Of a stretch of DNA of 39,282 nucleotides, positions 4,233-26,187 are shown one piece after another (the stretch's first letter is position 1; each line of letters opens with the position of its first letter). A model generated the notes under the pieces. The model did no database searches, was not told the origin of the DNA, and saw only the letters and a list, made by a program, of their open reading frames with translations. The DNA is from a plasmid. The translations under genes and the position numbers were made by a program. The stretch is taken from sequence record NZ_CP023006.1; one strand, 5' to 3'.

Positions 4233-4252
4233 AGGCCAATAAGGAGGAAAAA

Positions 4253-5230
4253 ATGAACTTTACAGAGAAAAAATTAAAGTCTTTCTCGATGCCACTCAGT
4301 GATACAGAAGATCAAAAATGTAAGCATGCTATTCAAGAAGTTAGAAATTCTATGGCTAACTTGGGATTTGAGGAGTCTTCTAATGGAATAACTCGTGTAT
4401 TTGACAATACTAGTTCCTATCAAACATTCATGAAAAATAATGAATCGGGCGAAAAAATCAAAATTTTTCTCCAGGGATCCTATGCAAATAATACTAATAT
4501 CAAAGCAGAAAGTGACGTTGATGTTGCTATAGTAAGAGAAGAAATTTTTAACACACTTTTTCGTAGTGAAGGAGTATACCCTCAAAATAATGAAACGTTT
4601 GGATTTTATAATGTACCACAAAAGCCAATAACATTTAAAGATCGTGTAGACACATGCTTAAGAGCTAGCTTTCACGAGCAAGTAATAAGACATAATAAGT
4701 CAATTAGGGTTTTGGGAAATAGTTACAGAAAAAATGCTGACACAGTCCCAGCTAATCGTTACAGAAACTATCAAGGAAACTATTCAAATGATCCTGAAGA
4801 CTATGTTGGAGGGATAATAATTAAACCAGATTATGGAACTTCTATAATTAATTATCCAGAACAACATATACGCATGGGAAGGCAGAAAAACATAGCAACA
4901 AATCATTTTTATAAAAAACAAGTTAGAATAATGAAAAGCATTAAAAACTTAATGACTGATGAGGGATATACATCCGCACAAAAAATGTCATCTTTTGGTT
5001 TGGAGTCATTAACTTGGAATATACCTGATAACATTTTCACTAAATATGACCAGCTAAGATTTGTTTTCGATGATATTGTTATCTATTTGACCGACCATGC
5101 AGATAATGTAGCTAACTTTAAAGAGGCAAATGGTATAAAAAGACTTTGTAATGATGAAAATCAAGTTACGGATTATCTAAACTTTATTTCGGATTTAAAA
5201 TCATTCTATGAATTTGAAATAGGAGATTAG
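4253..5230 (+). CDS. cGAS/DncV-like nucleotidyltransferase (SMODS / CD-NTase-like), 325 aa
   Basis: RBS AAGGAGG 7 nt upstream of the ATG. Motifs: Q74-G75-S76 (hQGS) then 11 residues then S87-D88-V-D90-V, i.e. the GS-x9-13-[DE]h[DE]h pol-beta NTase signature. Third carboxylate in A-D163-T-V-P-A (hDhVPA-type). The size and an inferred helical C-terminal half fit CD-NTase/SMODS and not a 100-140-aa MNT antitoxin. Confidence 0.75.
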   Translation: MNFTEKKLKSFSMPLSDTEDQKCKHAIQEVRNSMANLGFEESSNGITRVFDNTSSYQTFMKNNESGEKIKIFLQGSYANNTNIKAESDVDVAIVREEIFNTLFRSEGVYPQNNETFGFYNVPQKPITFKDRVDTCLRASFHEQVIRHNKSIRVLGNSYRKNADTVPANRYRNYQGNYSNDPEDYVGGIIIKPDYGTSIINYPEQHIRMGRQKNIATNHFYKKQVRIMKSIKNLMTDEGYTSAQKMSSFGLESLTWNIPDNIFTKYDQLRFVFDDIVIYLTDHADNVANFKEANGIKRLCNDENQVTDYLNFISDLKSFYEFEIGD

Positions 5231-5231
5231 A

Positions 5232-5792
5232 ATGAAAAGTGAAGAGAAAGGACTTATTAAATATAGTGTTACTATAGGAATTATTGTTTTTGTTGTTCTT
5301 TGTGTTACACATAATTTGAATATTAGACTAAATACATTGAAGTCTATTACGGATTACGCGGGAGATTCTATATCTATTAGTGTAATTTTTGCATTTTTTT
5401 ATGAAAAATATATTTGGCGTTGGAATCCATTTGAAAAACATCCGAGACTTGCTAAAAAATATTCTGGTTATCTTATTTCAACCTTTGATGATAAAAAAAG
5501 AACACTCGAACTAGACTTGAAACAAACTTTAATGACTTGCAAAGTACATCAAAAAACTGAAGAAAGCGACAGCGATGCAATTAATACAAATATAATAGAT
5601 ATAAATGGACGAAGTGCCCTTGTTTACACCTATTTAAATGTTCCAAGGCTAAATGTCCGAGAAAGAAGCCCTATACATTATGGAAGTGCTATTCTTTTTA
5701 TTAACAGTCAAGAAAAACTTAATGGAGGATACTTTACTGATAGGAAAACGACCGGTCAGATAACTGCTGAGAAAAAGATTAAACCGATTTAA
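5232..5792 (+). CDS. Two-TM effector protein (Cap15-like: 2 N-terminal TM helices + beta-rich C-terminal domain), 186 aa
   Basis: Start is 1 nt after the NTase stop, with RBS AGGAGA. TM1 is about aa 11-29 (YSVTIGIIVFVVLCVTHNL) and TM2 about aa 48-63 (ISISVIFAFFYEKYIW). The C-terminal about 120 aa has alternating hydrophobic patterns (beta-rich). Its position directly after a CD-NTase matches the type I CBASS effector slot. Confidence 0.6.
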   Translation: MKSEEKGLIKYSVTIGIIVFVVLCVTHNLNIRLNTLKSITDYAGDSISISVIFAFFYEKYIWRWNPFEKHPRLAKKYSGYLISTFDDKKRTLELDLKQTLMTCKVHQKTEESDSDAINTNIIDINGRSALVYTYLNVPRLNVRERSPIHYGSAILFINSQEKLNGGYFTDRKTTGQITAEKKIKPI

Positions 5793-5871
5793 GTAATAAC
5801 TTATAAAAAATTCATAATATTTAATTACATTAGGGGCCATAATTAACAAATACCCCCTTGAAAAGACCGAT

Positions 5872-5918
5872 AAAACAGCCCCTAACAAATCAACTTGGTT
5901 TGTTAGGGGCTGTTTTTT
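5872..5918. terminator. Strong bidirectional rho-independent terminator
   Basis: Perfect 18-bp stem aaaacagcccctaacaaa / tttgttaggggctgtttt with a 9-nt loop. Flanked by an A-run on the left and a T-run on the right. Lies 80 nt after the effector stop. Confidence 0.85.
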
Positions 5919-5984
5919 AGATTATACTTAAAATAACGCCTATAATGGTTGGATTCTAATGCTTAAAAAAGAGGTGACTAGGTT

Positions 5985-6257
5985 ATGGTGCAATAACTTG
6001 TTTTACCAATCAAAGATTCTAACGTCCTAACAAGTGTCCAGGAGACGCTGTTGGATAGTTTTCGAGCTGGTCGGCGTAATTACACCATTTTTCAACTGGG
6101 TAAAGCGACCTTACTACGGGTCAGTGATGTCATGCAGCTGAAAAAGGTTGATGTCTTTAACGCCGATGGTACGATTAAGCAAAATACGTTTATCCTCGAC
6201 CAAAAAACGGGTAAAGCTAACACTCTTTATCTCAAACCAGTGCAGACTGTATATTAA
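5985..6257 (+). pseudogene. Tyrosine recombinase pseudogene fragment (N-terminal about 90 codons only; premature TAA at codon 4, 3'-truncated)
   Basis: ATG at 5985 with RBS GAGGTGA. It reads M V Q * then LVLPIKDSNVLTSVQETLLDSFRAGRRNYTIFQLGKATLLRVSDVMQLKK..., which parallels the intact recombinase at 8433 (MQQVVLPIKDSNVLKEVQDTLLNNFKAGRRNYTVFQVGKATLLRVSDVMRLKQ...). It ends at KPVQTVY*, where it abuts the 3' end of the convergent mrr gene. About 70-75% nt identity to the intact copy. Confidence 0.8.
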
Positions 6258-7243
6258 TCTTTTGGAAATATTTTTTCATTGATAACAACGACTGTTTTTT
6301 CGCTAATGCCCATTCTATATTCAAATAATAAATCTACTAATTCATCACCATCAACTAAGGTAATTAAATTAGCTCCTTGACGCGATCTACTGACAGCATC
6401 ATTTGTATAGGTAGAAGTCGTTACAAATATCCCTCTGTCTGCATTATGACCACTAATGGTACCAGCAAAATTACTGATATCTGGTCCTGTAACCGGACCT
6501 TTTGTAAATCGCTTAGTTTGTAACACAATTTTATATGTCATCAACTCAGGGGTTCTTAAATAACCTATGCCATCAATGCCACTATCTCCTGTTTTTGAAG
6601 TGGTATCCATTTTAATGCCTATTTTTCGCATAAGATTTACAATCAATTCTTCAAACTTATATGGATTCATTTCACTCAATCGCTGTAATAATTGATCTCG
6701 CCATAATTCAGAATCATCTGTTTCTTCTACAATGTCTTCGTCCAGATTGGCAATATTGACATTTGAAGATGATAGTATTTCATCTTTCTTTTTTTGATTA
6801 TTTAGCTTCTTTTTTTGCCAAACAGGAGTAGATATTGAGTATACATCGTCCCATACATCAAAGTTATTTATATCAACGTCTTCTCCCATCTGTGTCAAGG
6901 CCCATACTCCCCACTGTGGTGAATAAAGTAATCCGGCTTTCTTTAAATTAGACATAGACCACTGCAATCTAAAATCTAACTGACTTTGACCATTACTAGA
7001 CTTTTTCTCTCTATCTGCATCTGTAAAATAAGGATATTCAACAGCCTTTTCTTTGACAAGAGCAGCTTTAGTTGGCCCCCCATAAGACTGTAATGCTTGT
7101 AAAATAGCCACTACACCAAACTTCTCCATATAGTTCAAGTTTTTATTAGAATTCACGAAGCTGAGCCAATTCTTAGGCATATCAGCTTCCAATTCTGTTA
7201 TTTTACGAGTGATTCCGAAATGATCATACGCTAAATCTACCAT
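6254..7243 (-). CDS. mrr: Mrr-family type IV (modification-dependent) restriction endonuclease
   Basis: C-terminal Mrr_cat-like region with TGDSGIDGIGY (the GDGGIDG-type motif) and an N-terminal winged-helix-like region. Preferred start is ATG at 7243 (rc), with AAGGATGG about 10 nt upstream and a minus-strand TATAAT -10 at 7274-7279. The tool's ORF extends to a GTG at 7282 that has no RBS. Confidence 0.8.
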   Translation of the reverse strand: MVDLAYDHFGITRKITELEADMPKNWLSFVNSNKNLNYMEKFGVVAILQALQSYGGPTKAALVKEKAVEYPYFTDADREKKSSNGQSQLDFRLQWSMSNLKKAGLLYSPQWGVWALTQMGEDVDINNFDVWDDVYSISTPVWQKKKLNNQKKKDEILSSSNVNIANLDEDIVEETDDSELWRDQLLQRLSEMNPYKFEELIVNLMRKIGIKMDTTSKTGDSGIDGIGYLRTPELMTYKIVLQTKRFTKGPVTGPDISNFAGTISGHNADRGIFVTTSTYTNDAVSRSRQGANLITLVDGDELVDLLFEYRMGISEKTVVVINEKIFPKD

Positions 7244-7655
7244 GTTTAATCCATCCTTATAAATTTTATTTTTATTATACACTTACGTTTACAGATTATT
7301 TTAATGTGGTTAAGCTGACACCAGCTTGCCCGACGCGGGTAGCGTTCTGCATGACATGCTCCCGATGAAATCGACCATGCAACGGTAAATTGCCCTGTCA
7401 CGGCGTGACCCGCCGGAGGTTTTACGAGCCGGATAATAGGCGCTGTAAAATAGCAGTTTTCCCAGAAGGAAGGGAAAACGCTACTGTAATCGCTTGTCGA
7501 TTACTTGCCTCGCAGAGCCTGTCCAAAATATTATTTTGGTATAACAGGCTATACCAGATTTTTAACGGTGTTATACTGGTCTTGGAAAACCTTTTTCGAG
7601 GAGGCATTTTTGATGGCGCATTTACAAAATCGCCCCTCAAAAATATTGAAAGAAT

Positions 7656-7700
7656 AACCCCTAATATCTATAATGCAGATATTAGGGGTTATTTATTTTC
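7656..7700. terminator. Bidirectional intrinsic terminator downstream of the toxin gene
   Basis: 14-bp stem aacccctaatatct / agatattaggggtt with a 7-nt loop and T-rich flanks on both strands. Lies 22 nt beyond the minus-strand toxin stop. Confidence 0.7.
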
Positions 7701-7721
7701 ATATTATAAAAATGACTTCTT

Positions 7722-8078
7722 CTATTCGTCATTTTTTCGATACCTTTTAGAACGATTTTGACCAGGAAATAAACGATCATGCGATCCGACTCGAATGCCA
7801 ATTAAGACTAGTTCATCTTTATCAATCGTATAAACCACCAGGACATCGTTAGTTTCGCTTGGTGTTTTGTTTTTCGGGGTATCTCGCAAGTGAAATTCAT
7901 TATAACCGCTCATTCGCCGATTAAGCTCATGATCTTCAAATTCTGGTGGTAATTGTTGTTGCTCAAGCAACAGGTCAATGGCTGCTCGAACTTCATTAAT
8001 AATAGATTTGTCTAAACTGGCTAACCGTTTTAGATCAGCATTAAAGGTTGCACGTGGTTTAAATCTTAGTTTTTTCAT
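7722..8078 (-). CDS. Type II toxin, RelE/ParE superfamily (YafQ/RelE-like mRNA interferase), 118 aa
   Basis: C-terminal VLVVYTIDKDELVLIGIRVGSHDRLF matches the RelE/YafQ-type ending (..LLIY.I.dd.L.L.RTGTHSDLF). The start ATG overlaps the antitoxin stop (TAATG). Gene order is antitoxin then toxin. Confidence 0.7.
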   Translation of the reverse strand: MKKLRFKPRATFNADLKRLASLDKSIINEVRAAIDLLLEQQQLPPEFEDHELNRRMSGYNEFHLRDTPKNKTPSETNDVLVVYTIDKDELVLIGIRVGSHDRLFPGQNRSKRYRKNDE

Positions 8079-8365
8079 TATTTAAACTGGCCCCAATAAT
8101 CATCATCTGATTCAACAATTTCATCGTCAGGTAAAACATGGCGTTTAATTAACTGATCACGTGCAATTGCATATTCTAACGAACCTTCTTTAGCTTTTAA
8201 TGCTCTTTCTAGCCACTCCATTTTTTCTTGTGAAACAATGGCTACTGCGCGACTATTTGAACGAGCAATATAAACGGTTTCGTCTTCGTCATTAACTTGA
8301 TCTAAATATTTTTTTAGGTTAGCGCGAAAATCGCTCTGTGTTAATGCTAATGTCATATTTACCAC
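8078..8365 (-). CDS. Phd/YefM-family antitoxin, 95 aa
   Basis: N-terminal pattern TQSDFRANLKKYLDQV...ETVYIARSN.RAVAIVSQE is typical of Phd/YefM. Acidic C-terminal tail (DDEIVESDDDYW). Translationally coupled to the downstream toxin. Confidence 0.75.
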   Translation of the reverse strand: MVNMTLALTQSDFRANLKKYLDQVNDEDETVYIARSNSRAVAIVSQEKMEWLERALKAKEGSLEYAIARDQLIKRHVLPDDEIVESDDDYWGQFK

Positions 8366-8432
8366 CCTTTCATTGTACTTAATATTGTACTTTAATTTGT
8401 ACTAAAAATCAATTTTTTAAGGAGCTAAAACT
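8366..8432. promoter_or_regulatory. Divergent promoter/operator region between the TA operon (-) and the recombinase (+), with three TTGTACT repeats at 12-bp spacing
   Basis: TGTAC at 8374, 8386 and 8398 (GTAC-core operators are typical for YefM/Phd autoregulation). Minus strand: -35 TTGATT, 17-nt spacer, -10 TACAAT, RBS AGGGTGG. Plus strand: RBS AAGGAG before ATG 8433. Confidence 0.55.
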
Positions 8433-9020
8433 ATGCAACAAGTTGTCTTACCCATCAAAGATTCAAACGTTCTCAAAGAGGTGCAAGATACCTTACTCAA
8501 CAACTTTAAAGCTGGCCGGCGTAACTATACAGTTTTTCAAGTTGGCAAAGCAACACTGTTGCGAGTCAGTGATGTCATGCGCTTAAAACAAACCGATATT
8601 TTTAATCCGGACGGTTCTATTAAACAAAATGCGTTTATTCATGACCGAAAAACGGGTAAACCGAATACCTTGTACCTTAAACCTGTTCAAACAGAGCTCT
8701 TATTGTACCGTCAATGGCTGCTTGATCATAAACTGGATTCTGAATGGCTCTTTCCTTCAATTCAACACCCAGAACGCCATATCACGGAAAAACAGTTCTA
8801 CAAAATTATGAGTAAGGTTGGCGATCTTTTAAGCATTAATTATCTAGGTACTCATACGATGCGCAAAACTGGGGCTTATCGTGTTTACACGCAATCAAAT
8901 TACAATATTGGTTTAGTCATGCACTTATTAAATCATTCAAGTGAAGCCATGACTTTAGCTTATTTAGGCTTAGACCAAGCCAGTACCGAAACGATGTTAG
9001 ATCAAATTGATTTTGGTTAG
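8433..9020 (+). CDS. Short tyrosine site-specific recombinase (catalytic domain only), 195 aa
   Basis: Box I-like GKATLLRVSDVMRLKQTDIF (Arg). Box II THTMRKTGAYRVY (H-x-x-R) and LLNHSSEAMTLAYLG (H plus the nucleophile Tyr in the 'lGHss..tt..Y' pattern). Confidence 0.85.
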   Translation: MQQVVLPIKDSNVLKEVQDTLLNNFKAGRRNYTVFQVGKATLLRVSDVMRLKQTDIFNPDGSIKQNAFIHDRKTGKPNTLYLKPVQTELLLYRQWLLDHKLDSEWLFPSIQHPERHITEKQFYKIMSKVGDLLSINYLGTHTMRKTGAYRVYTQSNYNIGLVMHLLNHSSEAMTLAYLGLDQASTETMLDQIDFG

Positions 9021-9099: not shown

Positions 9100-9290
9100 G
9101 GCGTGTAAGTGCGCCTTGACCGAGATTTGCTCGGTTTGCGGACTCACATAGATGTTCTATGTGTAAGTGCGCATTAAACTCATTTCATTCCGTTTAATGA
9201 CGCTAAAAAATAGCTAACTTGATCATTAAAATAAAAGGTTTTTTTAGTTCAATGCGCATTTACACGTCAACTAACTTTGACGTGTTTCGA
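9100..9290. repeat. Cluster of recombinase-site-like repeats (candidate res/multimer-resolution site)
   Basis: gtgtaagtgcgcc at 9103-9115, gtgtaagtgcgcatt at 9160-9174, and inverted aatgcgcatttacac at 9250-9264 (rc gtgtaaatgcgcatt, 1 mismatch). Small IRs also occur at 9145-9159 (catag..ctatg) and 9262-9283 (cacgtcaa..ttgacgtg). Lies immediately downstream of the recombinase gene. Confidence 0.5.
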
Positions 9291-9436
9291 TACCCCAAAA
9301 ATTGTATTAGATTTCGCTGCGCTCAAACAAATCTTTTTAATTGCTTTACACCGTTTTTCTTTCTAAACTTAATCACAATCTTTGAATAACTAACTATAAA
9401 AAGATGCCTTTAATTTAAACCTGAAATAATTAGCTA

Positions 9437-9649
9437 ATGTTAGGAGTCATTAAGCTGGACGAAAAGAAAGTATTAAAACCAATTGATGAAATGCTTGCTG
9501 ATCCTTGGCAAGTTGATATTCAAGAATTGTTTGAAGCTTCTGTCAATGAACCTGACGAGATCAAAAGGAATTTGTATGATTCCCTATATACTTATATTTT
9601 ACAAAAAAGACAAGAAGATATTATTAATCGTCCTGGCTTTGCTATTTAG
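9437..9649 (+). CDS. Hypothetical small acidic protein, 70 aa (coding status uncertain)
   Basis: Clean ORF in an otherwise non-coding stretch. No convincing SD. Weak hairpin/T-run after the stop. Confidence 0.3.
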   Translation: MLGVIKLDEKKVLKPIDEMLADPWQVDIQELFEASVNEPDEIKRNLYDSLYTYILQKRQEDIINRPGFAI

Positions 9650-9729
9650 TCCTCTAAAAGCTCACTGAGGGCTTTTTATTTTTGCTTTGGTGTAAATGTA
9701 TATGAATAGTCTTAAAATCGCTGAGAACA

Positions 9730-10100
9730 AAAAATAAGGCCCTTAAAAAGTGACATAGCAGTTAAATCTTTATCAAGTTTTAGAAAAGCTAACTGTTTGC
9801 TGTCAATGGTAGCGGACGAGCAAAGCGTGGGAGCATAAGGAATTGACAGCTCTTAACTAGTCTTAACACTGAATTGGCGAAAGCCAAAGTTTCTATAAAA
9901 CTTTGCTTTCCTGCCTAACGGCGAGTGAAAAAGCGGTCAAGCTGGCTCAGCTTGGATGGGGTTCGGGGCGTTAGCGCCCGATTAAATGTGGCTTGCCACA
10001 CCTTTTTAGGCAACGAACGAAGTGAGGCGCAAGAAGCGTAGCGACTGGAGTTTAATGTGAGCCGGTTTTTGGCTCACTCCTTTGTGTTTTTTGTTTCTAG
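9730..10100 (+). other. GC-enriched, highly structured non-coding region ending in an intrinsic terminator (candidate about 350-nt structured RNA, or a cis-acting site such as oriT/ssi)
   Basis: Serial inverted repeats: gctgtcaat..attgacagc (9-bp arms, 9793-9844); caaagtt..aactttg; caagctg-gct-cagcttg; ggcg-ttag-cgcc; gtgg-cttg-ccac. The final gtgagcc-ggttttt-ggctcac (10057-10077) is followed by a T-rich tract (tcctttgtgttttttgtttc). No ORF. Confidence 0.35.
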
Positions 10101-10119
10101 ATTTTAATCTCGTACAGCG

Positions 10120-10345
10120 GTGCCTCTTATATACCTCTTTTATAAACCTCTTTTAAACCTCTTTTAGACCCCTCTTGAGCCTTACTCTCCCAAGGCTCAC
10201 AGAAGGTTATCAAGTACCTTTTGTCTGTTTATCAAGTACCTTTTGTCTGTTTATCAAGTACCTTTTGTCTGTTTATCAAGTACCTTTTGTCTGTTTATCA
10301 AGTACCTTTATAAGTTCTGTACTTGATAAAAAGGTACTTTTATTT
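10120..10345. repeat. Theta-replication origin: five about-12-bp direct repeats (wACCTCTTTTA) followed by 4.5 x 22-bp iterons (tatcaagtaccttttgtctgtt) and an inverted partial iteron overlapping the repB promoter
   Basis: CCTCTT at 10123, 10134, 10147, 10158 and 10171 (11/13-bp spacing). Iterons at 10208, 10230, 10252 and 10274 (full), with a partial fifth at 10296. Inverted copy ttgataaaaaggtactt at 10323-10339 overlaps -35 TTGATA (10323-10328), 17-nt spacer, -10 TAATAT (10346-10351). Confidence 0.85.
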
Positions 10346-12176: not shown

Positions 12177-13091
12177 TTGAAAGAAGACCACAAACAATCA
12201 AGCGAGAATCTGAGCTCTAACGATATTCATGAAAATATAATAAGAAAATATATGCCTGATATTCTGAATATTTTACTTATTGATAGAACAACAAGCACAG
12301 CTAATGGTACTCATAATATAATTTGGGCAAATAAGAATTATCTAAAGTATGATTCCAAAAGATATGCTATGACAGCGGAAATCAAGCCCGAACTAATCAC
12401 GGGACTTATGGAAGGCATTATTCGTCCAAGAGCGTTAAAAACTAAAGAGATTCAAAAAAGACGGACTAAATCGAAAGCCGAGGTTTTTACACCAACTTGG
12501 ATAGTAAAAAAACAGAATGATGAAGTTGACAATGATTTTGCCAACGATGATTTAGAAACTTACGTAAAGCGAACCTGGCTTGAGATTACTTGCGGGGAAG
12601 CTCCTTATATGACAACTAGATATGATATGGACACCGGGAAAACTATTCCTATTGCTAAGCGTGTTGGATTCATTGATCGAAAGCTAGCTCGCATCAATAA
12701 GGAAGTTGACGGTAAATTGGAATGGCAACGGCTGGTTGAAGAATCTTATAAATCCAGCTATGGTTTTGAATGGAATGGGGATTCACTGCTATTAGCGCGT
12801 GAAAACTTGCTTTATACTTACCGTGATAATTTTTTGATTAAGTGGCATACAGAGCCAACTCTAATTTTGCTTAGATCAATTGCTAAAATCATTAGTTACA
12901 ATGTTTTTCAAATGGATGGCTTAAAATATACAATTCCTTTGACTGAAAGAAAAGAAAAAAAGATTGATCCACAAATGTCATTGTTTGAAGATTATAGTGA
13001 TGAGAAGTGGATAGTTAAGCCTGGAAAACGTGTAAAAATAATGAATTGGGAAAAAAATAAAATGGAATTTTTTGATCAAGGAGTGAAATAA
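12177..13091 (+). CDS. Hypothetical protein, 304 aa, translationally coupled to the large helicase-methyltransferase gene
   Basis: Strong RBS GGAGGGG 6 nt before TTG 12177. The tool's longer ORF from 12009 would overlap the upstream gene by 130 nt. The stop TAA at 13089-13091 is 2 nt before the GTG of the next gene. It contains EVFTPTWIV and ITCGEAPY segments loosely reminiscent of MTase motifs X and I, but has no NPPY. Confidence 0.6.
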   Translation: MKEDHKQSSENLSSNDIHENIIRKYMPDILNILLIDRTTSTANGTHNIIWANKNYLKYDSKRYAMTAEIKPELITGLMEGIIRPRALKTKEIQKRRTKSKAEVFTPTWIVKKQNDEVDNDFANDDLETYVKRTWLEITCGEAPYMTTRYDMDTGKTIPIAKRVGFIDRKLARINKEVDGKLEWQRLVEESYKSSYGFEWNGDSLLLARENLLYTYRDNFLIKWHTEPTLILLRSIAKIISYNVFQMDGLKYTIPLTERKEKKIDPQMSLFEDYSDEKWIVKPGKRVKIMNWEKNKMEFFDQGVK

Positions 13092-13093
13092 GT

Positions 13094-16000
13094 GTGAAAA
13101 ATCAGCCCGCTATTAATACAACAAAAATAGTATACCCACAAATATACGCTTATACGTTACCAACCGAGAAAGAAGATTTAGGGTGGATTAAAATTGGTTA
13201 CACTGAACGTAAAAATGTTGATGATCGTATCAAAGAACAGACACATACGGCTGCCATTCGTTTAACATATTCCAAATTATGGTCAGAACCAGCCAAGTTT
13301 GCTAAAAATGAGGGTTGGTTTAAAGATAAGCAATTTCATTCCTATTTGCGTCGTTATAAGAAAGTTAGTCAGCGTCAAGGAACTGAATGGTTCTATTATG
13401 ATGGTCATCCGCAAAAATCACATCAAGATTTCATGGATTTTCGTAACAACCAGAAATCTCAAATTAAAGAACAGCTGACTTATCAGCTAAGACCTGAGCA
13501 AGTTGCAGCAGTTCACCAAACGTTAGATTATGCCCATAATCATCCTAATAGCGAATTCTTGTGGAACGCAAAACCACGGTTTGGAAAAACTTTAACTACA
13601 TATGATTTAGCTAGAAAATTAGATGCTAAAACTGTTTTAGTTGTGACTAATCGTCCTGCGGTTGCTAACTCTTGGTTTGATGATTTTGAAAAATTTATTT
13701 CTTGGCAAACTAGTTACGCTTTTATTTCGACTAATGATACTTTAAAAGATCGTCCAGTTTTAACAATAGACGAATTTAATAATGAACCATTTAGTGGCAG
13801 TAAAAAAGACAAAATGATTACCTTTATTTCCTTACAAGATTTGAAGGGAGCAATTTCATTTGGTGGTAACTATGACAAGCTCAAATGGGTTAAAGATTCA
13901 CATTGGGATTTACTAGTTATTGATGAGAGTCATGAGGGAGTAGATACTTTTAAAACTGATATTGCTTTCAATAATATTAATCGTGACTTTACTTTAAATT
14001 TATCTGGTACGCCCTTTAAAGCCGTTGCATCAGGAAAATTTAAACAAAATCAAATTTATAATTGGACTTATGCTGACGAACAACAGGCAAAAGCAAATTG
14101 GCATGATTCAGAAAAAAATAATCCTTATAGATCATTACCAAAGCTGAATCTGTTTTCTTATCAGATGAGTCCCATGATCACAGATGAAGTTAATCAAGGA
14201 GCACAAATCAACGGAGATAATATTGACTATGCTTTTGATTTAAATGAATTTTTCGCAACCAACCAAAATGGCCATTTTATTCATGAAATGGATATAAAAA
14301 AATGGTTAGATACCTTAACACATAACGAGAAATATCCATTCTCTACTAAAGAATTAAGGAATAAACTAAAGCATACTTTCTGGCTATTAAATCGTGTTGC
14401 CAGTGCTAAGGCGCTAGAAAAATTATTAAAAGAACATCCAGTTTTTAAAGATTATGAGATTATTTTAGCAGCTGGAGATGGGCATGGTTTTGATGACGAT
14501 CAGACCATTAATGAAAAATCACTTGATAAAGTTAAAAGAGAAATTAAAAAAAATGATAAAACTATAACGTTATCCGTTGGCCAATTGACGACTGGTGTGA
14601 CTATTCCTGAGTGGACAGCCGTATTAGTATTATCTAACCTAAAATCACCCAGCCAATACATGCAAGCGGCATTTCGGGCACAAAATCCGTGGGAACACAT
14701 GGTTAATGGTCAAGTTTATCAAAAAGAAAATGCCTACGTTTTTGACTTTGCCCCTGAACGTACGTTAACTATTTATGATGAATTTGCTAACGATTTATCA
14801 AAACAAACATCAAATGGTAACGGAACGACAAAGGACCGTGAGAAAAATATCGGGAGGTTATTGAACTTTTTCCCTGTAATTGCTGAAGATAAGCAAGGCA
14901 AGATGGTTGAATTAAACGTTAACCAGGTCCTAACTATTCCAAGAGCCATTAAAGCTCAAGAAGTAGTTCGACGTGGTTTTATGTCTAATTTGTTGTTTGC
15001 AAATATATCAGGAATTTTTGCTTCAGCAGGGGCACGAGAAATATTGGAACAATTAAATCCGGTTGACACTGGTAAAAAAGTTTCGCATAAGACTGAAAAG
15101 AAAATCGATACAAGAAATGTCAAAGTCAACGATAAGGGTGAAGTTGAAGTCAATCCAGAAATTGTTGTAGCTAAAACGTCGGCCCATTTTGGTGAGAAAG
15201 TTTACGGCGATATAACTGATAAAATCGAACAAGCGTCAAATCAAGATATCAATTTGGTCAAACTTACTTCAGATACATTCAAGAAAAAAACTTTAGCAGC
15301 AGCAAAGAATATTGCTAAAGAAAATGGTTTGACTGCTACAACAGCAGAACATATTATCCAGCAACATTCAAATTTTTTGGCGCGTGAAGTTCAAGTTATT
15401 CAAAAACAAAAGAATATAAAAGAAGCTCAAAATAAAGTAGATTTAAAGCAAGCTATTGAAAAATCTCAAGATAATCCTGAAGAAATTGCTAAAGCTCAGA
15501 CAGCGTTTGAAAATAGAAAACAACAAATTGAAAGGGGGTATAAAGAAAAATTAACCAAAAAAGTTGCTGATCAGACAAAACAACTAACCAATCAAACAAC
15601 TGAAACCTTGTTAAAAAAGGCAGAAGAAAAGAAGAAAAATACGGTTGAGGATGATATTCGAGCACGTTTGCGTGGCTTTGCTCGCACTATTCCTTCATTT
15701 TTGATGGCTTATGGTGCATCCACTACAGAACTAGCTAATTTTGATCAAAATATAAAAGGTGATGTTTTCAAAGAGGTAACAGGTATCACACTTGATCAGT
15801 TCCGATCCTTACGCGATACGTATCATTTTTTCGATGAAACAACATTTAATGAATCCGTTCAAGAATTTTTAAGAAAAAGATCTCAACTTGCTAATTATTT
15901 TGACGAATCACAAGATGAGGACATTTTTGATTATGTTCCAGCCCAGAAGACCAATCAAATATTTACTCCAAAGAGAGTCGTTAAATTGATGCTTGATAAG

Positions 16001-17326
16001 CTTGAAGAGGAAGAGCCTAACATCTTTAAAGACAAAAACAAAACTTTTGTTGATTTGTACGTTAAATCTGGATTGTATTTAACCGAAATCATCAAACGTC
16101 TTTATATTGGTCTGGAAGATCAAATACCTGAGTCAAATGAACGTTTGACTCATATCTTAGAAAAACAGATTTATGGTTTTGCTCCAAGCAATATTATTTA
16201 TAGCATTGCAAAGAACTTTGTTTTTTCACCCTTTCCAAATTTAGATAATTCACATTTAAAACAGTTAGATATGATTCCTTATGCCAAAAGAGAGAAGAGG
16301 CTGGATATGAAATTTGACGTAGTGGTGGGAAATCCACCTTATCAGGAAACAGCAAATGGTAAAAGTACTAAAGACGTTCCAGTTTATAATTACTTTTATG
16401 ATTTAGCAGAAAGAGTTTCAACAAAATATATTTTAATTTCTCCAGCTCGTTTCTTATTTAATGCCGGCAGTACCGATAAAAAATGGAATAAGAAGATGCT
16501 TTCAAATAAACATATAAAGGTTGTTTTTTATGAGCAAGATGCAGCAAAGATTTTTCCAAATACCGATATTAAGGGTGGGATTGCTATCCTATATAGAAAT
16601 AAAGATAAAGATTTCGGAAACATTGGATTGTTTACTCCTTTTGAAGAATTAGATTCCATCTCTAATAAAGTATCTAAGTTGACATATCGGACACTAGACG
16701 AAATTATTTCTAATCGTGGTCAATATAGATTTTCAGATTTAATTTACAAAGAATATCCGAATGATATGAAGAAAATTTCAGACAGAAGAATCGCTTCTAA
16801 CGCGTTTAATAACCTCCCAAATTTATTTACAGAAAAAGAACCACACAATAAGTTCAATTATATAAGGATATTAGGTCGTTTAGACAATCAACGCATTTAT
16901 AGGTGGTTTAGGCGCGATTATTTACAAGAACCCATAACTTTTGAAAAATGGAAAATAATACTACCTAAAGCTAATGGAAGTGGGGCAATTGGAGAAGTAT
17001 TAAGTACACCCCTAATCGGTAAACCCCTAATCGGGTTTACCGAGACTTTTATTTCAATTGGTGTTTTTGATAATAAGTTAGAAGCTCAAAATGCTCTAAA
17101 ATATGTCCAAAGTAAATTTGCACGAACTATGCTGGGAATTTTAAAAATTACACAGGACAATCCAAAGGATAAGTGGTCAAAGGTTCCTCTTCAAGACTTC
17201 ACACAAAATTCAGATATAGATTGGACTAAGTCAATATCTGATATTGATCAGCAACTTTATAAAAAATATGGACTAAATCAAAAAGAAATTAATTTTATTG
17301 AAAATAAAGTTAAATCAATGAATTAA
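13094..17326 (+). CDS. Large multidomain protein, 1410 aa: T5orf172 (GIY-YIG superfamily) domain + SF2 DExH helicase + K/E-rich coiled coil + gamma-class N6-adenine MTase (NPPY) + TRD-like C-terminus; Type ISP-RM-like architecture
   Basis: GTG start with AAGGAG 11 nt upstream. aa 14-60 IVYPQIYAYTL..GWIKIGYTERKNVDDRIKEQ (T5orf172-like). Helicase motif I AKPRFGKT (aa 160-166), II VIDESH (aa 275-280), III LSGTPF, VI-like QAAFRAQN (aa 524-531). MTase motif X IFTPKRVVKLML (F957), motif IV FDVVVGNPPYQ (N1080-Y1083). Eco57I/TaqI-like post-NPPY region (YFYDLAERVSTKYILISPARFL) and C-terminal YKKYGLNQKEINFIE helix. Confidence 0.85.
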   Translation: MKNQPAINTTKIVYPQIYAYTLPTEKEDLGWIKIGYTERKNVDDRIKEQTHTAAIRLTYSKLWSEPAKFAKNEGWFKDKQFHSYLRRYKKVSQRQGTEWFYYDGHPQKSHQDFMDFRNNQKSQIKEQLTYQLRPEQVAAVHQTLDYAHNHPNSEFLWNAKPRFGKTLTTYDLARKLDAKTVLVVTNRPAVANSWFDDFEKFISWQTSYAFISTNDTLKDRPVLTIDEFNNEPFSGSKKDKMITFISLQDLKGAISFGGNYDKLKWVKDSHWDLLVIDESHEGVDTFKTDIAFNNINRDFTLNLSGTPFKAVASGKFKQNQIYNWTYADEQQAKANWHDSEKNNPYRSLPKLNLFSYQMSPMITDEVNQGAQINGDNIDYAFDLNEFFATNQNGHFIHEMDIKKWLDTLTHNEKYPFSTKELRNKLKHTFWLLNRVASAKALEKLLKEHPVFKDYEIILAAGDGHGFDDDQTINEKSLDKVKREIKKNDKTITLSVGQLTTGVTIPEWTAVLVLSNLKSPSQYMQAAFRAQNPWEHMVNGQVYQKENAYVFDFAPERTLTIYDEFANDLSKQTSNGNGTTKDREKNIGRLLNFFPVIAEDKQGKMVELNVNQVLTIPRAIKAQEVVRRGFMSNLLFANISGIFASAGAREILEQLNPVDTGKKVSHKTEKKIDTRNVKVNDKGEVEVNPEIVVAKTSAHFGEKVYGDITDKIEQASNQDINLVKLTSDTFKKKTLAAAKNIAKENGLTATTAEHIIQQHSNFLAREVQVIQKQKNIKEAQNKVDLKQAIEKSQDNPEEIAKAQTAFENRKQQIERGYKEKLTKKVADQTKQLTNQTTETLLKKAEEKKKNTVEDDIRARLRGFARTIPSFLMAYGASTTELANFDQNIKGDVFKEVTGITLDQFRSLRDTYHFFDETTFNESVQEFLRKRSQLANYFDESQDEDIFDYVPAQKTNQIFTPKRVVKLMLDKLEEEEPNIFKDKNKTFVDLYVKSGLYLTEIIKRLYIGLEDQIPESNERLTHILEKQIYGFAPSNIIYSIAKNFVFSPFPNLDNSHLKQLDMIPYAKREKRLDMKFDVVVGNPPYQETANGKSTKDVPVYNYFYDLAERVSTKYILISPARFLFNAGSTDKKWNKKMLSNKHIKVVFYEQDAAKIFPNTDIKGGIAILYRNKDKDFGNIGLFTPFEELDSISNKVSKLTYRTLDEIISNRGQYRFSDLIYKEYPNDMKKISDRRIASNAFNNLPNLFTEKEPHNKFNYIRILGRLDNQRIYRWFRRDYLQEPITFEKWKIILPKANGSGAIGEVLSTPLIGKPLIGFTETFISIGVFDNKLEAQNALKYVQSKFARTMLGILKITQDNPKDKWSKVPLQDFTQNSDIDWTKSISDIDQQLYKKYGLNQKEINFIENKVKSMN

Positions 17327-17346: not shown

Positions 17347-18324
17347 ATGAACTTTACAGAGAAAAAATTAAAGTCTTTCTCGATGCCACTCAGTGATACA
17401 GAAGATCAAAAATGTAAGCATGCTATTCAAGAAGTTAGAAATTCTATGGCTAACTTGGGATTTGAGGAGTCTTCTAATGGAATAACTCGTGTATTTGACA
17501 ATACTAGTTCCTATCAAACATTCATGAAAAATAATGAATCGGGCGAAAAAATCAAAATTTTTCTCCAGGGATCCTATGCAAATAATACTAATATCAAAGC
17601 AGAAAGTGACGTTGATGTTGCTATAGTAAGAGAAGAAATTTTTAACACACTTTTTCGTAGTGAAGGAGTATACCCTCAAAATAATGAAACGTTTGGATTT
17701 TATAATGTACCACAAAAGCCAATAACATTTAAAGATCGTGTAGACACATGCTTAAGAGCTAGCTTTCACGAGCAAGTAATAAGACATAATAAGTCAATTA
17801 GGGTTTTGGGAAATAGTTACAGAAAAAATGCTGACACAGTCCCAGCTAATCGTTACAGAAACTATCAAGGAAACTATTCAAATGATCCTGAAGACTATGT
17901 TGGAGGGATAATAATTAAACCAGATTATGGAACTTCTATAATTAATTATCCAGAACAACATATACGCATGGGAAGGCAGAAAAACATAGCAACAAATCAT
18001 TTTTATAAAAAACAAGTTAGAATAATGAAAAGCATTAAAAACTTAATGACTGATGAGGGATATACATCCGCACAAAAAATGTCATCTTTTGGTTTGGAGT
18101 CATTAACTTGGAATATACCTGATAACATTTTCACTAAATATGACCAGCTAAGATTTGTTTTCGATGATATTGTTATCTATTTGACCGACCATGCAGATAA
18201 TGTAGCTAACTTTAAAGAGGCAAATGGTATAAAAAGACTTTGTAATGATGAAAATCAAGTTACGGATTATCTAAACTTTATTTCGGATTTAAAATCATTC
18301 TATGAATTTGAAATAGGAGATTAG
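17347..18324 (+). CDS. cGAS/DncV-like nucleotidyltransferase (SMODS/CD-NTase-like), copy B
   Basis: Identical to 4253..5230 (+13094). Confidence 0.75.
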   Translation: MNFTEKKLKSFSMPLSDTEDQKCKHAIQEVRNSMANLGFEESSNGITRVFDNTSSYQTFMKNNESGEKIKIFLQGSYANNTNIKAESDVDVAIVREEIFNTLFRSEGVYPQNNETFGFYNVPQKPITFKDRVDTCLRASFHEQVIRHNKSIRVLGNSYRKNADTVPANRYRNYQGNYSNDPEDYVGGIIIKPDYGTSIINYPEQHIRMGRQKNIATNHFYKKQVRIMKSIKNLMTDEGYTSAQKMSSFGLESLTWNIPDNIFTKYDQLRFVFDDIVIYLTDHADNVANFKEANGIKRLCNDENQVTDYLNFISDLKSFYEFEIGD

Positions 18325-18325
18325 A

Positions 18326-18886
18326 ATGAAAAGTGAAGAGAAAGGACTTATTAAATATAGTGTTACTATAGGAATTATTGTTTTTGTTGTTCTTTGTGTT
18401 ACACATAATTTGAATATTAGACTAAATACATTGAAGTCTATTACGGATTACGCGGGAGATTCTATATCTATTAGTGTAATTTTTGCATTTTTTTATGAAA
18501 AATATATTTGGCGTTGGAATCCATTTGAAAAACATCCGAGACTTGCTAAAAAATATTCTGGTTATCTTATTTCAACCTTTGATGATAAAAAAAGAACACT
18601 CGAACTAGACTTGAAACAAACTTTAATGACTTGCAAAGTACATCAAAAAACTGAAGAAAGCGACAGCGATGCAATTAATACAAATATAATAGATATAAAT
18701 GGACGAAGTGCCCTTGTTTACACCTATTTAAATGTTCCAAGGCTAAATGTCCGAGAAAGAAGCCCTATACATTATGGAAGTGCTATTCTTTTTATTAACA
18801 GTCAAGAAAAACTTAATGGAGGATACTTTACTGATAGGAAAACGACCGGTCAGATAACTGCTGAGAAAAAGATTAAACCGATTTAA
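18326..18886 (+). CDS. Two-TM Cap15-like effector, copy B
   Basis: Identical to 5232..5792 (+13094). Confidence 0.6.
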   Translation: MKSEEKGLIKYSVTIGIIVFVVLCVTHNLNIRLNTLKSITDYAGDSISISVIFAFFYEKYIWRWNPFEKHPRLAKKYSGYLISTFDDKKRTLELDLKQTLMTCKVHQKTEESDSDAINTNIIDINGRSALVYTYLNVPRLNVRERSPIHYGSAILFINSQEKLNGGYFTDRKTTGQITAEKKIKPI

Positions 18887-19078
18887 GTAATAACTTATAA
18901 AAAATTCATAATATTTAATTACATTAGGGGCCATAATTAACAAATACCCCCTTGAAAAGACCGATAAAACAGCCCCTAACAAATCAACTTGGTTTGTTAG
19001 GGGCTGTTTTTTAGATTATACTTAAAATAACGCCTATAATGGTTGGATTCTAATGCTTAAAAAAGAGGTGACTAGGTT

Positions 19079-19351
19079 ATGGTGCAATAACTTGTTTTAC
19101 CAATCAAAGATTCTAACGTCCTAACAAGTGTCCAGGAGACGCTGTTGGATAGTTTTCGAGCTGGTCGGCGTAATTACACCATTTTTCAACTGGGTAAAGC
19201 GACCTTACTACGGGTCAGTGATGTCATGCAGCTGAAAAAGGTTGATGTCTTTAACGCCGATGGTACGATTAAGCAAAATACGTTTATCCTCGACCAAAAA
19301 ACGGGTAAAGCTAACACTCTTTATCTCAAACCAGTGCAGACTGTATATTAA
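19079..19351 (+). pseudogene. Tyrosine recombinase pseudogene fragment, copy B
   Basis: Identical to 5985..6257 (+13094). Confidence 0.8.
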
Positions 19352-20337
19352 TCTTTTGGAAATATTTTTTCATTGATAACAACGACTGTTTTTTCGCTAA
19401 TGCCCATTCTATATTCAAATAATAAATCTACTAATTCATCACCATCAACTAAGGTAATTAAATTAGCTCCTTGACGCGATCTACTGACAGCATCATTTGT
19501 ATAGGTAGAAGTCGTTACAAATATCCCTCTGTCTGCATTATGACCACTAATGGTACCAGCAAAATTACTGATATCTGGTCCTGTAACCGGACCTTTTGTA
19601 AATCGCTTAGTTTGTAACACAATTTTATATGTCATCAACTCAGGGGTTCTTAAATAACCTATGCCATCAATGCCACTATCTCCTGTTTTTGAAGTGGTAT
19701 CCATTTTAATGCCTATTTTTCGCATAAGATTTACAATCAATTCTTCAAACTTATATGGATTCATTTCACTCAATCGCTGTAATAATTGATCTCGCCATAA
19801 TTCAGAATCATCTGTTTCTTCTACAATGTCTTCGTCCAGATTGGCAATATTGACATTTGAAGATGATAGTATTTCATCTTTCTTTTTTTGATTATTTAGC
19901 TTCTTTTTTTGCCAAACAGGAGTAGATATTGAGTATACATCGTCCCATACATCAAAGTTATTTATATCAACGTCTTCTCCCATCTGTGTCAAGGCCCATA
20001 CTCCCCACTGTGGTGAATAAAGTAATCCGGCTTTCTTTAAATTAGACATAGACCACTGCAATCTAAAATCTAACTGACTTTGACCATTACTAGACTTTTT
20101 CTCTCTATCTGCATCTGTAAAATAAGGATATTCAACAGCCTTTTCTTTGACAAGAGCAGCTTTAGTTGGCCCCCCATAAGACTGTAATGCTTGTAAAATA
20201 GCCACTACACCAAACTTCTCCATATAGTTCAAGTTTTTATTAGAATTCACGAAGCTGAGCCAATTCTTAGGCATATCAGCTTCCAATTCTGTTATTTTAC
20301 GAGTGATTCCGAAATGATCATACGCTAAATCTACCAT
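19348..20337 (-). CDS. mrr: Mrr-family type IV restriction endonuclease, copy B
   Basis: Identical to 6254..7243 (+13094). Confidence 0.8.
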   Translation of the reverse strand: MVDLAYDHFGITRKITELEADMPKNWLSFVNSNKNLNYMEKFGVVAILQALQSYGGPTKAALVKEKAVEYPYFTDADREKKSSNGQSQLDFRLQWSMSNLKKAGLLYSPQWGVWALTQMGEDVDINNFDVWDDVYSISTPVWQKKKLNNQKKKDEILSSSNVNIANLDEDIVEETDDSELWRDQLLQRLSEMNPYKFEELIVNLMRKIGIKMDTTSKTGDSGIDGIGYLRTPELMTYKIVLQTKRFTKGPVTGPDISNFAGTISGHNADRGIFVTTSTYTNDAVSRSRQGANLITLVDGDELVDLLFEYRMGISEKTVVVINEKIFPKD

Positions 20338-20815
20338 GTTTAATCCATCCTTATAAATTTTATTTTTATTATACACTTACGTTTACAGATTATTTTAATG
20401 TGGTTAAGCTGACACCAGCTTGCCCGACGCGGGTAGCGTTCTGCATGACATGCTCCCGATGAAATCGACCATGCAACGGTAAATTGCCCTGTCACGGCGT
20501 GACCCGCCGGAGGTTTTACGAGCCGGATAATAGGCGCTGTAAAATAGCAGTTTTCCCAGAAGGAAGGGAAAACGCTACTGTAATCGCTTGTCGATTACTT
20601 GCCTCGCAGAGCCTGTCCAAAATATTATTTTGGTATAACAGGCTATACCAGATTTTTAACGGTGTTATACTGGTCTTGGAAAACCTTTTTCGAGGAGGCA
20701 TTTTTGATGGCGCATTTACAAAATCGCCCCTCAAAAATATTGAAAGAATAACCCCTAATATCTATAATGCAGATATTAGGGGTTATTTATTTTCATATTA
20801 TAAAAATGACTTCTT

Positions 20816-23213: not shown

Positions 23214-23439
23214 GTGCCTCTTATATACCTCTTTTATAAACCTCTTTTAAACCTCTTTTAGACCCCTCTTGAGCCTTACTCTCCCAAGGCTCACAGAAGG
23301 TTATCAAGTACCTTTTGTCTGTTTATCAAGTACCTTTTGTCTGTTTATCAAGTACCTTTTGTCTGTTTATCAAGTACCTTTTGTCTGTTTATCAAGTACC
23401 TTTATAAGTTCTGTACTTGATAAAAAGGTACTTTTATTT
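23214..23439. repeat. Replication origin (short DRs + 22-bp iterons), copy B
   Basis: Identical to 10120..10345 (+13094). Confidence 0.85.
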
Positions 23440-23463
23440 TAATATGTGTTTGAGGTGATAATC

Positions 23464-24399
23464 ATGTCTAATGAGTTAGTTAAGTATGATCCTGAGTTGA
23501 ATACTATTCCCTTGAGAAAATTTACCCCAATTGAGATGAATTTATTTTTTTCAATTGTTTCCCGCATGCGGGATCAAGGGAATAAAACTGTTCGTTTCTC
23601 TTTTGACCAGTTAAAAGAGCTTAGTAACTATAAACCAACCGCAAATAAACGTTTTATTGATGATATTGAAAATACATACCAAAAGATCCTCAGCCTTAGG
23701 TTTGGCCGTAGAAGTAAGAGTGGCTTAAATCGTGAATTTTTTGTTATGTTTACTGAATTTGAAATTAAAGGTGAAGCTGAAGAACCTTATGTTGATATTC
23801 AGGTTTATCCCAAAGCATTGCACTTGCTAAACGATTTAGAAAGTTGGGTTCGTTATGCCCTAACAGAATTTAGAAATTTAAAAAGCAGTTACGCTAAAAC
23901 AATGTTTCGTCTAATTAAGCAATTTCGAACTACTGGCTATTCTTATTTCTCTAAAGAAGATTTTTTTGAATTGCTTGATATACCTAAAAGTTATTGGAAT
24001 AGTCCTTCAAATGTTGACAAAAAGGTTATTAAGCCAATTAGAGAAGAATTAACCCCGCTTTTTAGAGGGCTAACGATTAGAAAAAAATATGGTAAAGGCA
24101 GAGGAAAACCAGTTATCGGTTATTCTTTTACTTGGAAACCTGAAAGCAAGGACGCAAATGATTTTTCTCAAGGCAAATTTCAAGATGAGCGTCAAAAACT
24201 CTTTAACATTCAACACAATGATGAATTATCAGATAAAGAAAAGTGGCGTGCAATTGACAAAGTTAAATGCTTGCCTTTAGGAACAACTGAAAAACAGGTA
24301 CTGGCTGAAAAACAAGCTGAACATGATCAAAAAATCAGAGATCAAGCAAGACAAGAAGCACTTGCTGAACTCCGAAAGGGGCTTGGAAATAATGCCTAA
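23464..24399 (+). CDS. repB: RepB replication initiator, copy B
   Basis: Identical to 10370..11305 (+13094). Confidence 0.85.
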   Translation: MSNELVKYDPELNTIPLRKFTPIEMNLFFSIVSRMRDQGNKTVRFSFDQLKELSNYKPTANKRFIDDIENTYQKILSLRFGRRSKSGLNREFFVMFTEFEIKGEAEEPYVDIQVYPKALHLLNDLESWVRYALTEFRNLKSSYAKTMFRLIKQFRTTGYSYFSKEDFFELLDIPKSYWNSPSNVDKKVIKPIREELTPLFRGLTIRKKYGKGRGKPVIGYSFTWKPESKDANDFSQGKFQDERQKLFNIQHNDELSDKEKWRAIDKVKCLPLGTTEKQVLAEKQAEHDQKIRDQARQEALAELRKGLGNNA

Positions 24400-26185: not shown

Positions 26186-26187
26186 GT

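Follow-up and report, generated by a model that had tools for sequence, protein, structure and literature searches.

A plasmid gene pair that may encode a two-subunit, ATP-dependent restriction–modification enzyme with a GIY-YIG-type nuclease module and an exchangeable specificity cassette

Can the nuclease of an ATP-dependent restriction enzyme be exchanged for one of another type while the motor, the methyltransferase (MTase) and the target recognition domain (TRD) stay in place? This question is raised by a long gene, here called B, at positions 13094-17326 of a plasmid sequence of 39,282 nucleotides (record NZ_CP023006.1; this whole stretch is the window referred to below), in which a 13,094-bp unit occurs three times in tandem without a single difference (3 x 13,094 = 39,282). 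A preliminary description, made from the sequence alone, had presented B as a single-polypeptide enzyme with the domain order of the Type ISP restriction enzymes, in which a T5orf172 module of the GIY-YIG clan occupies the position of the Mrr-like nuclease. Here, we present a computational analysis of B, of its upstream neighbour A and of their relatives, and we consider it probable, although far from settled, that A and B together constitute a two-subunit, ATP-dependent restriction–modification (R-M) enzyme resembling Type ISP and Type I systems and featuring a GIY-YIG-type nuclease.

Gene B is an open reading frame (ORF) of 1410 codons plus stop on the plus strand, with a GTG start located 9 nt downstream of an AAGGAG sequence. 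The chance of a stop-free run of this length is about 6e-47 at this base composition, and a Pediococcus pentosaceus protein at NCBI is identical to B over 1410 aa. The proposed ORF is thus borne out by its start codon, its open frame and the identical protein, and every motif that had been quoted from it lies at the residue originally given. Pfam detected T5orf172 at aa 17-102 (20.7 bits, with a cut-off of 20), ResIII at 130-308, N6_Mtase at 950-1249 and Eco57I (PF07669) at 1059-1154 (E 4e-16), while neither B nor A had a match in NCBIfam. Together, the Pfam matches and the motifs (Table 1) confirm the order of a GIY-YIG-type module, a superfamily 2 (SF2) helicase, a gamma-type N6-adenine (N6A) MTase and a TRD, including the expected T5orf172 match at the N-terminus. 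For the conservation analyses, B was aligned with 33 relatives from several phyla with a mean identity of approximately 62%.

The T5orf172 call, which is borderline in B itself, is firm at the family level, since PF10544 matches all 33 relatives at E<=0.01 (best E 4e-6), with MUG113 matching as well in two of them. Invariant in the 33 relatives are Y18, Y20, K33, G35, Y36, T37, R45, H82, E98, W99 and F100. Of these, R45 and E98 (the latter within EWF) lie at the expected spacing after KIGYT and, judging by the motif pattern, may correspond to the catalytic R27 and E75 of I-TevI, the Glu being E180 in Odn. Among seven very divergent B proteins, T5orf172 was detected in four, and a search for an alternative nuclease in this N-terminal "nuclease slot" found none but returned T5orf172 again. 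Neither Pfam nor PADLOC reported Mrr_cat or any other PD-(D/E)xK match in B and, since A is no nuclease (see below), T5orf172 remains the one nuclease-type domain detected in the A-B system. Nuclease activity of a T5orf172 protein has been demonstrated for Odn of ICP1, in which a mutant of the conserved Glu, E180A, serves as the catalytic mutant (PMC8263062), and by analogy the module in the B subfamily would be a nuclease as well. The proposal that a T5orf172 module stands in the position of the Type ISP Mrr nuclease therefore survives, considering that it is the sole nuclease-type domain, that its Arg and Glu are invariant and that Odn provides a precedent.

The motor of B is also conserved, with the ATPase motifs GKT, DESH, SGT (aa 304-306) and QAAFRAQ (aa 524-530) invariant among the 33 relatives and ResIII matching in 33/33, in addition to weak matches of Helicase_C and an SNF2-related domain in a few. 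Compared by sequence with solved structures, the B helicase had no similar helicase, and phmmer searches of the whole of B and three of its regions against all PDB chains, including 4xqk and 5ffj, gave no match to LlaGI or LlaBIII at E up to 10. The linker that follows the motor is the least conserved part of B outside the TRD (column conservation 0.54-0.73). A coiled coil of about 200 aa had been suggested in this region, and what holds of it is the K/E-rich composition: residues 701-850 contain 17% Lys, 10% Glu, one Pro and three Gly, which is compatible with long helices.

Table 1 Features of the window. Positions are those of the window and, where given, of protein B.
Feature	Window position (strand)	Position in B (aa)	Remarks
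Gene A	12177..13091 (+)		304 aa; TTG start 7 nt after GGAGG
A/B junction	13079..13096 (+)		AAGGAG ribosome-binding site of B within the 3' end of A; A stops with TAA (13089-13091), 2 nt before the GTG of B (13094)
T5orf172 module (GIY-YIG clan), candidate nuclease	13136..13405 (+)	15-104	PF10544 and invariant columns
IYAYTL		17-22	
GWIKIGYTERKNVDDRIKEQ		30-49	
SF2 helicase-like ATPase	13466..15073 (+)	125-660	ResIII and invariant motifs
GKT		164-166	
DESH		277-280	
LSGTP		303-307	
K/E-rich linker ("coupler"), presumably helical	15074..15898 (+)	661-935	Composition, conservation
BN, B's own pre-NPPY MTase half	15899..16297 (+)	936-1068	
FTP		957-959	
CH, exchangeable cassette	16298..17326 (+)	1069-1410	
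NPPY	16331-16342	1080-1083	
Hypervariable TRD core	16604..16963 (+)	1171-1290	
YKKYGLNQKEINFIE		1389-1403	Conserved C-terminal helix
CBASS-like cyclase and Cap15-type effector with two transmembrane segments (2TM)	17347-18886 (+)		Nucleotidyltransferase, PADLOC Cyclase 5e-86; effector 8e-54
Strong terminator	18967-19009		20-bp stem; 3' of the CBASS effector
Mrr_N + Mrr_cat Type IV (modification-dependent) restriction enzyme	19348-20376 (-)		
ORF of 123 aa	20484-20855 (+)		Between the Mrr and toxin genes; no Pfam, NCBIfam or PADLOC match
AT-rich repeats	23217-23270		
Iterons, 4.7 perfect 22-bp direct repeats (TTATCAAGTACCTTTTGTCTGT)	23301-23403		Just upstream of the Rep3 gene
Rep3 initiator gene	23446-24399		
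Further copies of gene A	25271-26185, 38365-39279		Next plasmid units

B is not on its own. Directly upstream lies gene A, a tightly coupled member of the system which the preliminary description had overlooked, and the layout of the A/B junction (read at 26173-26190, where the bases are identical, one unit on) looks like that of translationally coupled genes. Junctions of 2 nt, or overlapping ones, were also present in pRS5, pL11991-5 and the loci L004, L006 and L089-L092. In all nine loci retrieved with B as the seed (the window, pRS5, pL11991-5, Parasphaerochaeta, Gallibacterium and four more) A adjoins B, and the pairing is thus obligatory in this set. A itself has no Pfam match, but more than 7900 homologues, which are about 70% identical across genera and form 1597 representative clusters at 50% identity, ranging from Firmicutes to bacteria of the candidate phyla radiation (CPR). 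At NCBI these homologues are labelled "restriction endonuclease", and the matching PADLOC model is "MTase_II".

To what fold A belongs was addressed by structure prediction; sequence searches of A and of an A profile against PDB chains gave nothing meaningful. An AlphaFold2 (AF2) model from 32 close homologues was unusable (predicted local distance difference test, pLDDT, 49.5), while a model from a 95-sequence alignment including fusions of A to the C-terminal module of B reached a pLDDT of 81.7 and a predicted template modelling score (pTM) of 0.83. The latter features a helical N-domain, strand 1 (134-136), strand 2 (194-198), strand 3 (243-245) and then a small beta-sheet, and its fold matches MTases only, with neighbours at the fold level including Type IIG enzymes and the MTase domain of LlaBIII. 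The motifs of A are EVFTP (aa 102-106), LEITCGEAPY (135-144), YGFE (195-198) and QMD (245-247), with no NPPY, and these invariant residues, up to E198 and D247, fit the S-adenosylmethionine (SAM)-binding motifs of gamma-type MTases and resemble motifs I-III of M.TaqI. As judged by the model, A is the front half of an MTase, comprising the helical N-domain and the first three Rossmann strands. A reading of A as a PD-(D/E)xK nuclease, based on RYD150 ... GFID167-R-K169 and on the NCBI name, was considered and rejected, with D167-K169 lying in a predicted helix and the fold matching MTases only. With neither a nuclease fold nor a nuclease catalytic motif in A, the name "restriction endonuclease" is unsupported.

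How the MTase is distributed over the proteins becomes apparent from the relatives. Each of six modules (A, T5orf172, helicase, linker, BN and CH) was represented by a hidden Markov model (HMM), and these models were mapped onto 85 loci, of which A as query had yielded 80 while the remaining five, which are related, had been found before. The loci span Firmicutes, Proteobacteria, Bacteroidota, Fusobacteria, the Planctomycetes–Verrucomicrobia–Chlamydiae (PVC) group, CPR and others. The arrangement of the window, with A followed by a T5orf172-helicase-linker-BN-CH gene, was found in 16 loci, and more divergent A and B pairs, in either gene order, in 27. In another 19, CH is fused to A instead and is followed by a T5orf172-helicase-linker-BN gene, in seven the A, T5orf172-helicase-linker-BN and CH parts are three genes, two loci have A-CH only, and the contigs of the remaining 14 were too short to classify. 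Many A relatives are accordingly about 630-650 aa long, with the A module followed by MKFDVVIGNPPYQ ... TRD ... QLYKKYGL..FIE, the module that B has at aa 1069-1410. Enterococcus hirae, for example, has an A-CH gene (640 aa) and then a 1102-aa gene equal to B aa 1-1065 (T5orf172-helicase-linker-BN), the products being 54% and 52% identical, respectively, to the window proteins, and the CH of B is 54% identical to the C-terminal half of the E. hirae A-CH protein. BN is kept at the C-terminus of the shorter B protein even where the catalytic half is encoded elsewhere. As A and BN are both retained whichever partner carries CH, both appear to be needed independently of the fusion to CH, and with CH on A or on a gene of its own the enzyme must be multi-subunit at least in those loci.

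These observations bear on an alternative in which B needs no partner and constitutes a complete Type ISP-like enzyme in one polypeptide, its nuclease exchanged, while A is a dispensable neighbour or a regulator. On paper, B indeed holds every activity, i.e. the nuclease-type module, the ATPase, a complete X-I-IV MTase region (N6_Mtase, aa 950-1249) and the TRD, and 43 of the 71 complete loci have the catalytic half as part of the B chain. Nevertheless, we regard this alternative as unlikely, given the invariable presence, coupling and conservation of A, and the loci in which the catalytic half is on A or separate. In addition, the acidic residue after strand 2 is absent from BN whatever the architecture class, whereas A retains it. 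For the same reasons, namely a partner that is coupled to B in nine of nine B-seeded loci and an NPPY+TRD half that is found on A, on B or separately, the term "single-polypeptide" used in the preliminary description does not apply.

BN is unusual in further respects. Apart from FTP, it contains YGFAPS and a non-canonical motif I, FVDLYVKSGLY, with Lys in place of the first Gly; the pattern (D/E)-h-x-[SV]-K-x-G-x-[FY] is conserved, and K991, S992 and G993 are invariant among the 33 relatives, as are the FTP and NPPY of B. Pfam aligns both BN+CH and A+CH as continuous MTase domains. When A was compared with the pre-NPPY region of B by hhalign, a match of only 35 columns was obtained, covering the stretch from FTP to motif I with a probability of 6%, which is at most suggestive of paralogy between A and BN.

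The part that moves between the genes also varies the most. In B, CH starts at MKFDVVVGNPPYQ, followed by the remaining catalytic region, then by the TRD and finally by the C-terminal helix, and the stand-alone PADLOC model REase_MTase_IIG (PDLC03375) covers B aa 1072-1409 (2e-44). Column conservation is 0.44-0.56 at aa 1171-1290 compared with about 0.8 elsewhere, and by this pattern these residues behave as a TRD. Regarding the two domains anticipated for the C-terminal part, the N6_Mtase/Eco57I domain was thus recovered, whereas Pfam reported no TaqI_C-type TRD, its place being taken by this variable segment. The B protein of L. backii is 97-100% identical to that of the window over aa 1-1080 and only 15-35% identical from 1081 to the end, i.e. 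with the break at NPPY, and it is this drop that identifies CH as a swapped specificity cassette; A is 97-98% identical between the window and L. backii-type alleles. The allele of Oenococcus diverges from the window B only at aa 1201-1280. A comparable pattern is known from the hsdS alleles of Type I systems. LlaGI and LlaBIII differ from each other in the same way as the L. backii and window B proteins (PMC3553950). Moreover, in a Holophagaceae locus (L092) the CH fused to B is followed by two spare, stand-alone CH genes (7935-8966 and 9150-10196), which each start at MRFDVVVGNPPYQ, and all three cassettes share identical N- and C-termini and differ in the middle. This set of spare genes resembles multiple hsdS alleles. 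Inverted or silent cassettes, as expected for phase variation, were sought in the 80 A-seeded loci, and none was found on the opposite strand. As a separate observation, the CH of the window contains a 15-bp in-frame tandem duplication (17004-17034) encoding "PLIGKPLIG", which in the next copy gives a terminator-like hairpin score (30110-30137) and which, in the L092 alignment, only some of the homologous cassettes share.

Based on these data, the two-subunit enzyme that we favour would function as follows, restriction, translocation and every catalytic step being what we infer. CH would read a short, probably asymmetric DNA site and methylate adenine, by which host DNA would be protected. The SAM-binding half could be provided by BN, by A, which has the more canonical motifs, or by both, and we lean towards A being needed for methylation. 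At an unmodified site the SF2 motor of B would hydrolyse ATP and translocate or loop DNA, and the T5orf172 domain would cut it, in the role that the Mrr domain has in LlaGI and LlaBIII. Specificity would evolve by replacement of the NPPY+TRD cassette as a whole, the conserved FDVVxGNPPYQ serving as the junction. A more specific version, which we put forward as a tentative possibility, is a split MTase with A as the SAM-binding half (strands 1-3, TaqI-like motifs I-III) and the mobile CH contributing strands 4-7, NPPY and the TRD, while BN would be a docking or decoy module coupling the MTase to the motor and nuclease. CH, and with it the specificity and part of the active site, could then be freely exchanged, fused to either partner or stocked as a spare, and the availability of A could gate modification versus restriction.

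The genomic setting is that of defence. The 13,094-bp unit is a circular Rep3/iteron plasmid of Lactobacillaceae, with the iterons and AT-rich repeats upstream of Rep3 marking the replication origin, and it also carries a YafQ/Phd toxin–antitoxin (TA) pair and a tyrosine recombinase; with the genes of Table 1, it is a small defence plasmid. As the unit is triplicated, B recurs at 26188-30420 and, minus its first base, at the start of the window. The three-fold repetition, which had gone unnoticed in the preliminary description, is probably a concatemer from long-read assembly, and possibly a true multimer. The plasmid is most similar to the records of L. plantarum LZ206p3, P. pentosaceus pRS5 and L. 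backii pL11991-5. In LZ206p3 (L001), the closest plasmid at 94.7% identity, the B gene is annotated as about ten small coding sequences (4149-8965), and is either a decayed copy or part of a record with many sequencing frameshifts. In the window, only 20 nt separate the stop of B from the cyclase of a cyclic oligonucleotide-based antiphage signalling system (CBASS), and with the sole strong terminator located downstream of the CBASS effector, co-transcription of A, B and CBASS is possible. A promoter scan returned 38 sites compared with 36.4 expected from shuffled sequence, and no promoter is therefore claimed. Because the end of the toxin gene, encoded on the opposite strand, overlaps with the 123-aa ORF, the latter may be no real gene.

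In other loci the neighbours include GmrSD, McrBC, AbiE, integrases and TA modules. Loci of the S. mitis group have an Abi_2 gene between the A-CH and helicase genes (L033, 10978-11928; also L038, L039 and L041-L043), and Abi genes are often inserted inside Type I R-M operons. In Parasphaerochaeta coccoides (L004, 4838-5062) a 74-aa Cro/C1-type helix-turn-helix (HTH) protein (HTH_26) is encoded directly upstream of A, and is similar to R-M controller (C) proteins. This setting is relevant to the idea that A and B serve anti-restriction or establishment, as a methylase-helicase carried by a plasmid or phage (DarB-like or of the conjugative kind), and protect the mobile element instead of restricting incoming DNA. 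MTase-helicase fusions with an anti-restriction role do exist, such as P1 DarB, and the location on a small plasmid would fit. Still, we find this idea very improbable: many homologues are chromosomal and reside in defence islands with GmrSD, McrBC and Abi genes as neighbours, none of the adjacent genes is a conjugation gene, the PHROGs database gave only two weak, partial matches, both in the C-terminal MTase part of B and none in A, the MTase follows the helicase and the N-terminus is of the nuclease type, and one locus has the C-protein-like HTH upstream. Thus, the grouping with conjugative anti-restriction MTase-helicases that the preliminary description had named as a reason to abandon a restriction function was not observed, the family occurring in defence islands and on small plasmids rather than in conjugation modules.

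A further alternative is a methylation system that does not cut, in which the helicase and T5orf172 would bind, remodel or block replication in a BREX- or DISARM-like manner, or an epigenetic relic with only the MTase functional, as argued for DnmA of B. subtilis. Against this stand the facts that relatives from different phyla all retain the nuclease-type Arg and Glu and every ATPase motif, which points to selection on catalysis, that rapid cassette exchange and spare cassettes fit a specificity element engaged in an arms race, and that the genes are intact on this plasmid. We therefore consider a non-cutting system rather unlikely.

Several points nevertheless weigh against a two-subunit restriction enzyme. 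The stoichiometry is odd, with two N-terminal halves (A and BN) per catalytic half, and since Pfam sees a continuous domain across B's own MTase region, A may be unneeded for methylation. T5orf172 was originally described as a DNA-binding module. The Mrr enzyme encoded on the same plasmid may conflict with N6-methyladenine (m6A), or else have a compatible specificity. No experiment on this family was found in the literature searched and, in an analogous system, dnmA-yeeB-yeeC of B. subtilis, neither restriction nor phage defence was seen (PMC9973331), which means that such systems can be inactive or act differently.

The family is large, with at least approximately 8000 clusters at 90% identity each for A and for B, and resides under generic or misleading names such as "Eco57I ... 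domain-containing", "DEAD/DEAH helicase", "restriction endonuclease" and "RM type IIG". If the proposed function is correct, it would represent a major uncharacterised class of ATP-dependent restriction enzymes with a GIY-YIG-type nuclease, would account for many orphan m6A motifs in methylomes and would bear on the kinship of Type I, ISP and IIG enzymes. It would also be a natural modular MTase with a cassette-swapped catalytic/TRD half, which could be used in specificity engineering. For the lactic acid bacteria of food fermentations, it is a plasmid-borne candidate for phage resistance that shares a 13-kb replicon with CBASS and Mrr.

No description of this exact architecture was found in our literature search, but the concept is not entirely new: a trio of a helicase, a GIY-YIG protein and an MmeI-like MTase (YeeA/B/C) was proposed in 2009 by Morgan et al. 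to be a Type I-like system that modifies a single strand (PMC2731913), and yeeAB confers phage resistance in Vibrio crassostreae (bioRxiv 10.1101/2021.05.05.442762). Compared by function, the association of helicase and T5orf172 is common to both systems. However, YeeA (DnmA), YeeB and YeeC have the three functions on separate proteins, whereas in B the T5orf172 and helicase modules are fused, usually together with the MTase, and the extra half-MTase subunit A belongs to the window system and not to YeeA/B/C. Further, the YeeA MTase is MmeI-like while that of the window is of the Eco57I type, and Pfam, which assigned only Eco57I and N6_Mtase to the MTase of B and Eco57I to the A-CH fusions, found no MmeI domains in either.

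With the Type IIG/IIL enzymes (Eco57I, MmeI, BpuSI, DrdV) the system shares an Eco57I-type N6A MTase with NPPY, a fused TRD and the typical C-terminal helix. These enzymes are, however, single chains with an N-terminal PD-(D/E)xK nuclease and no ATPase motor, whereas B has an SF2 ATPase and no PD-(D/E)xK, and with the motor present and this nuclease absent the defence-finder call "RM type IIG" is inaccurate. Type I systems (HsdR/HsdM/HsdS) employ a separate TRD-only S subunit with two TRDs and a different nuclease type, while the window system has one TRD within an exchangeable unit that includes the catalytic NPPY region, and its motor and MTase are usually fused in the family. The order of SF2 ATPase, gamma-type N6A MTase and C-terminal TRD in B is that of the Type ISP enzymes LlaGI and LlaBIII of Lactococcus plasmids, which translocate from an asymmetric site at the expense of ATP and cleave when two of them collide. 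Membership in Type ISP proper was not upheld, given that B has a T5orf172/GIY-YIG-type module instead of the Mrr PD-(D/E)xK nuclease, that no sequence similarity of B to the solved chains of LlaGI/LlaBIII was detectable and that, on genomic evidence, the single polypeptide is replaced by B plus an obligatory A, with the catalytic/TRD half sometimes encoded elsewhere. The unit exchanged in the window system begins at NPPY and thus comprises part of the MTase catalytic region, not the TRD alone.

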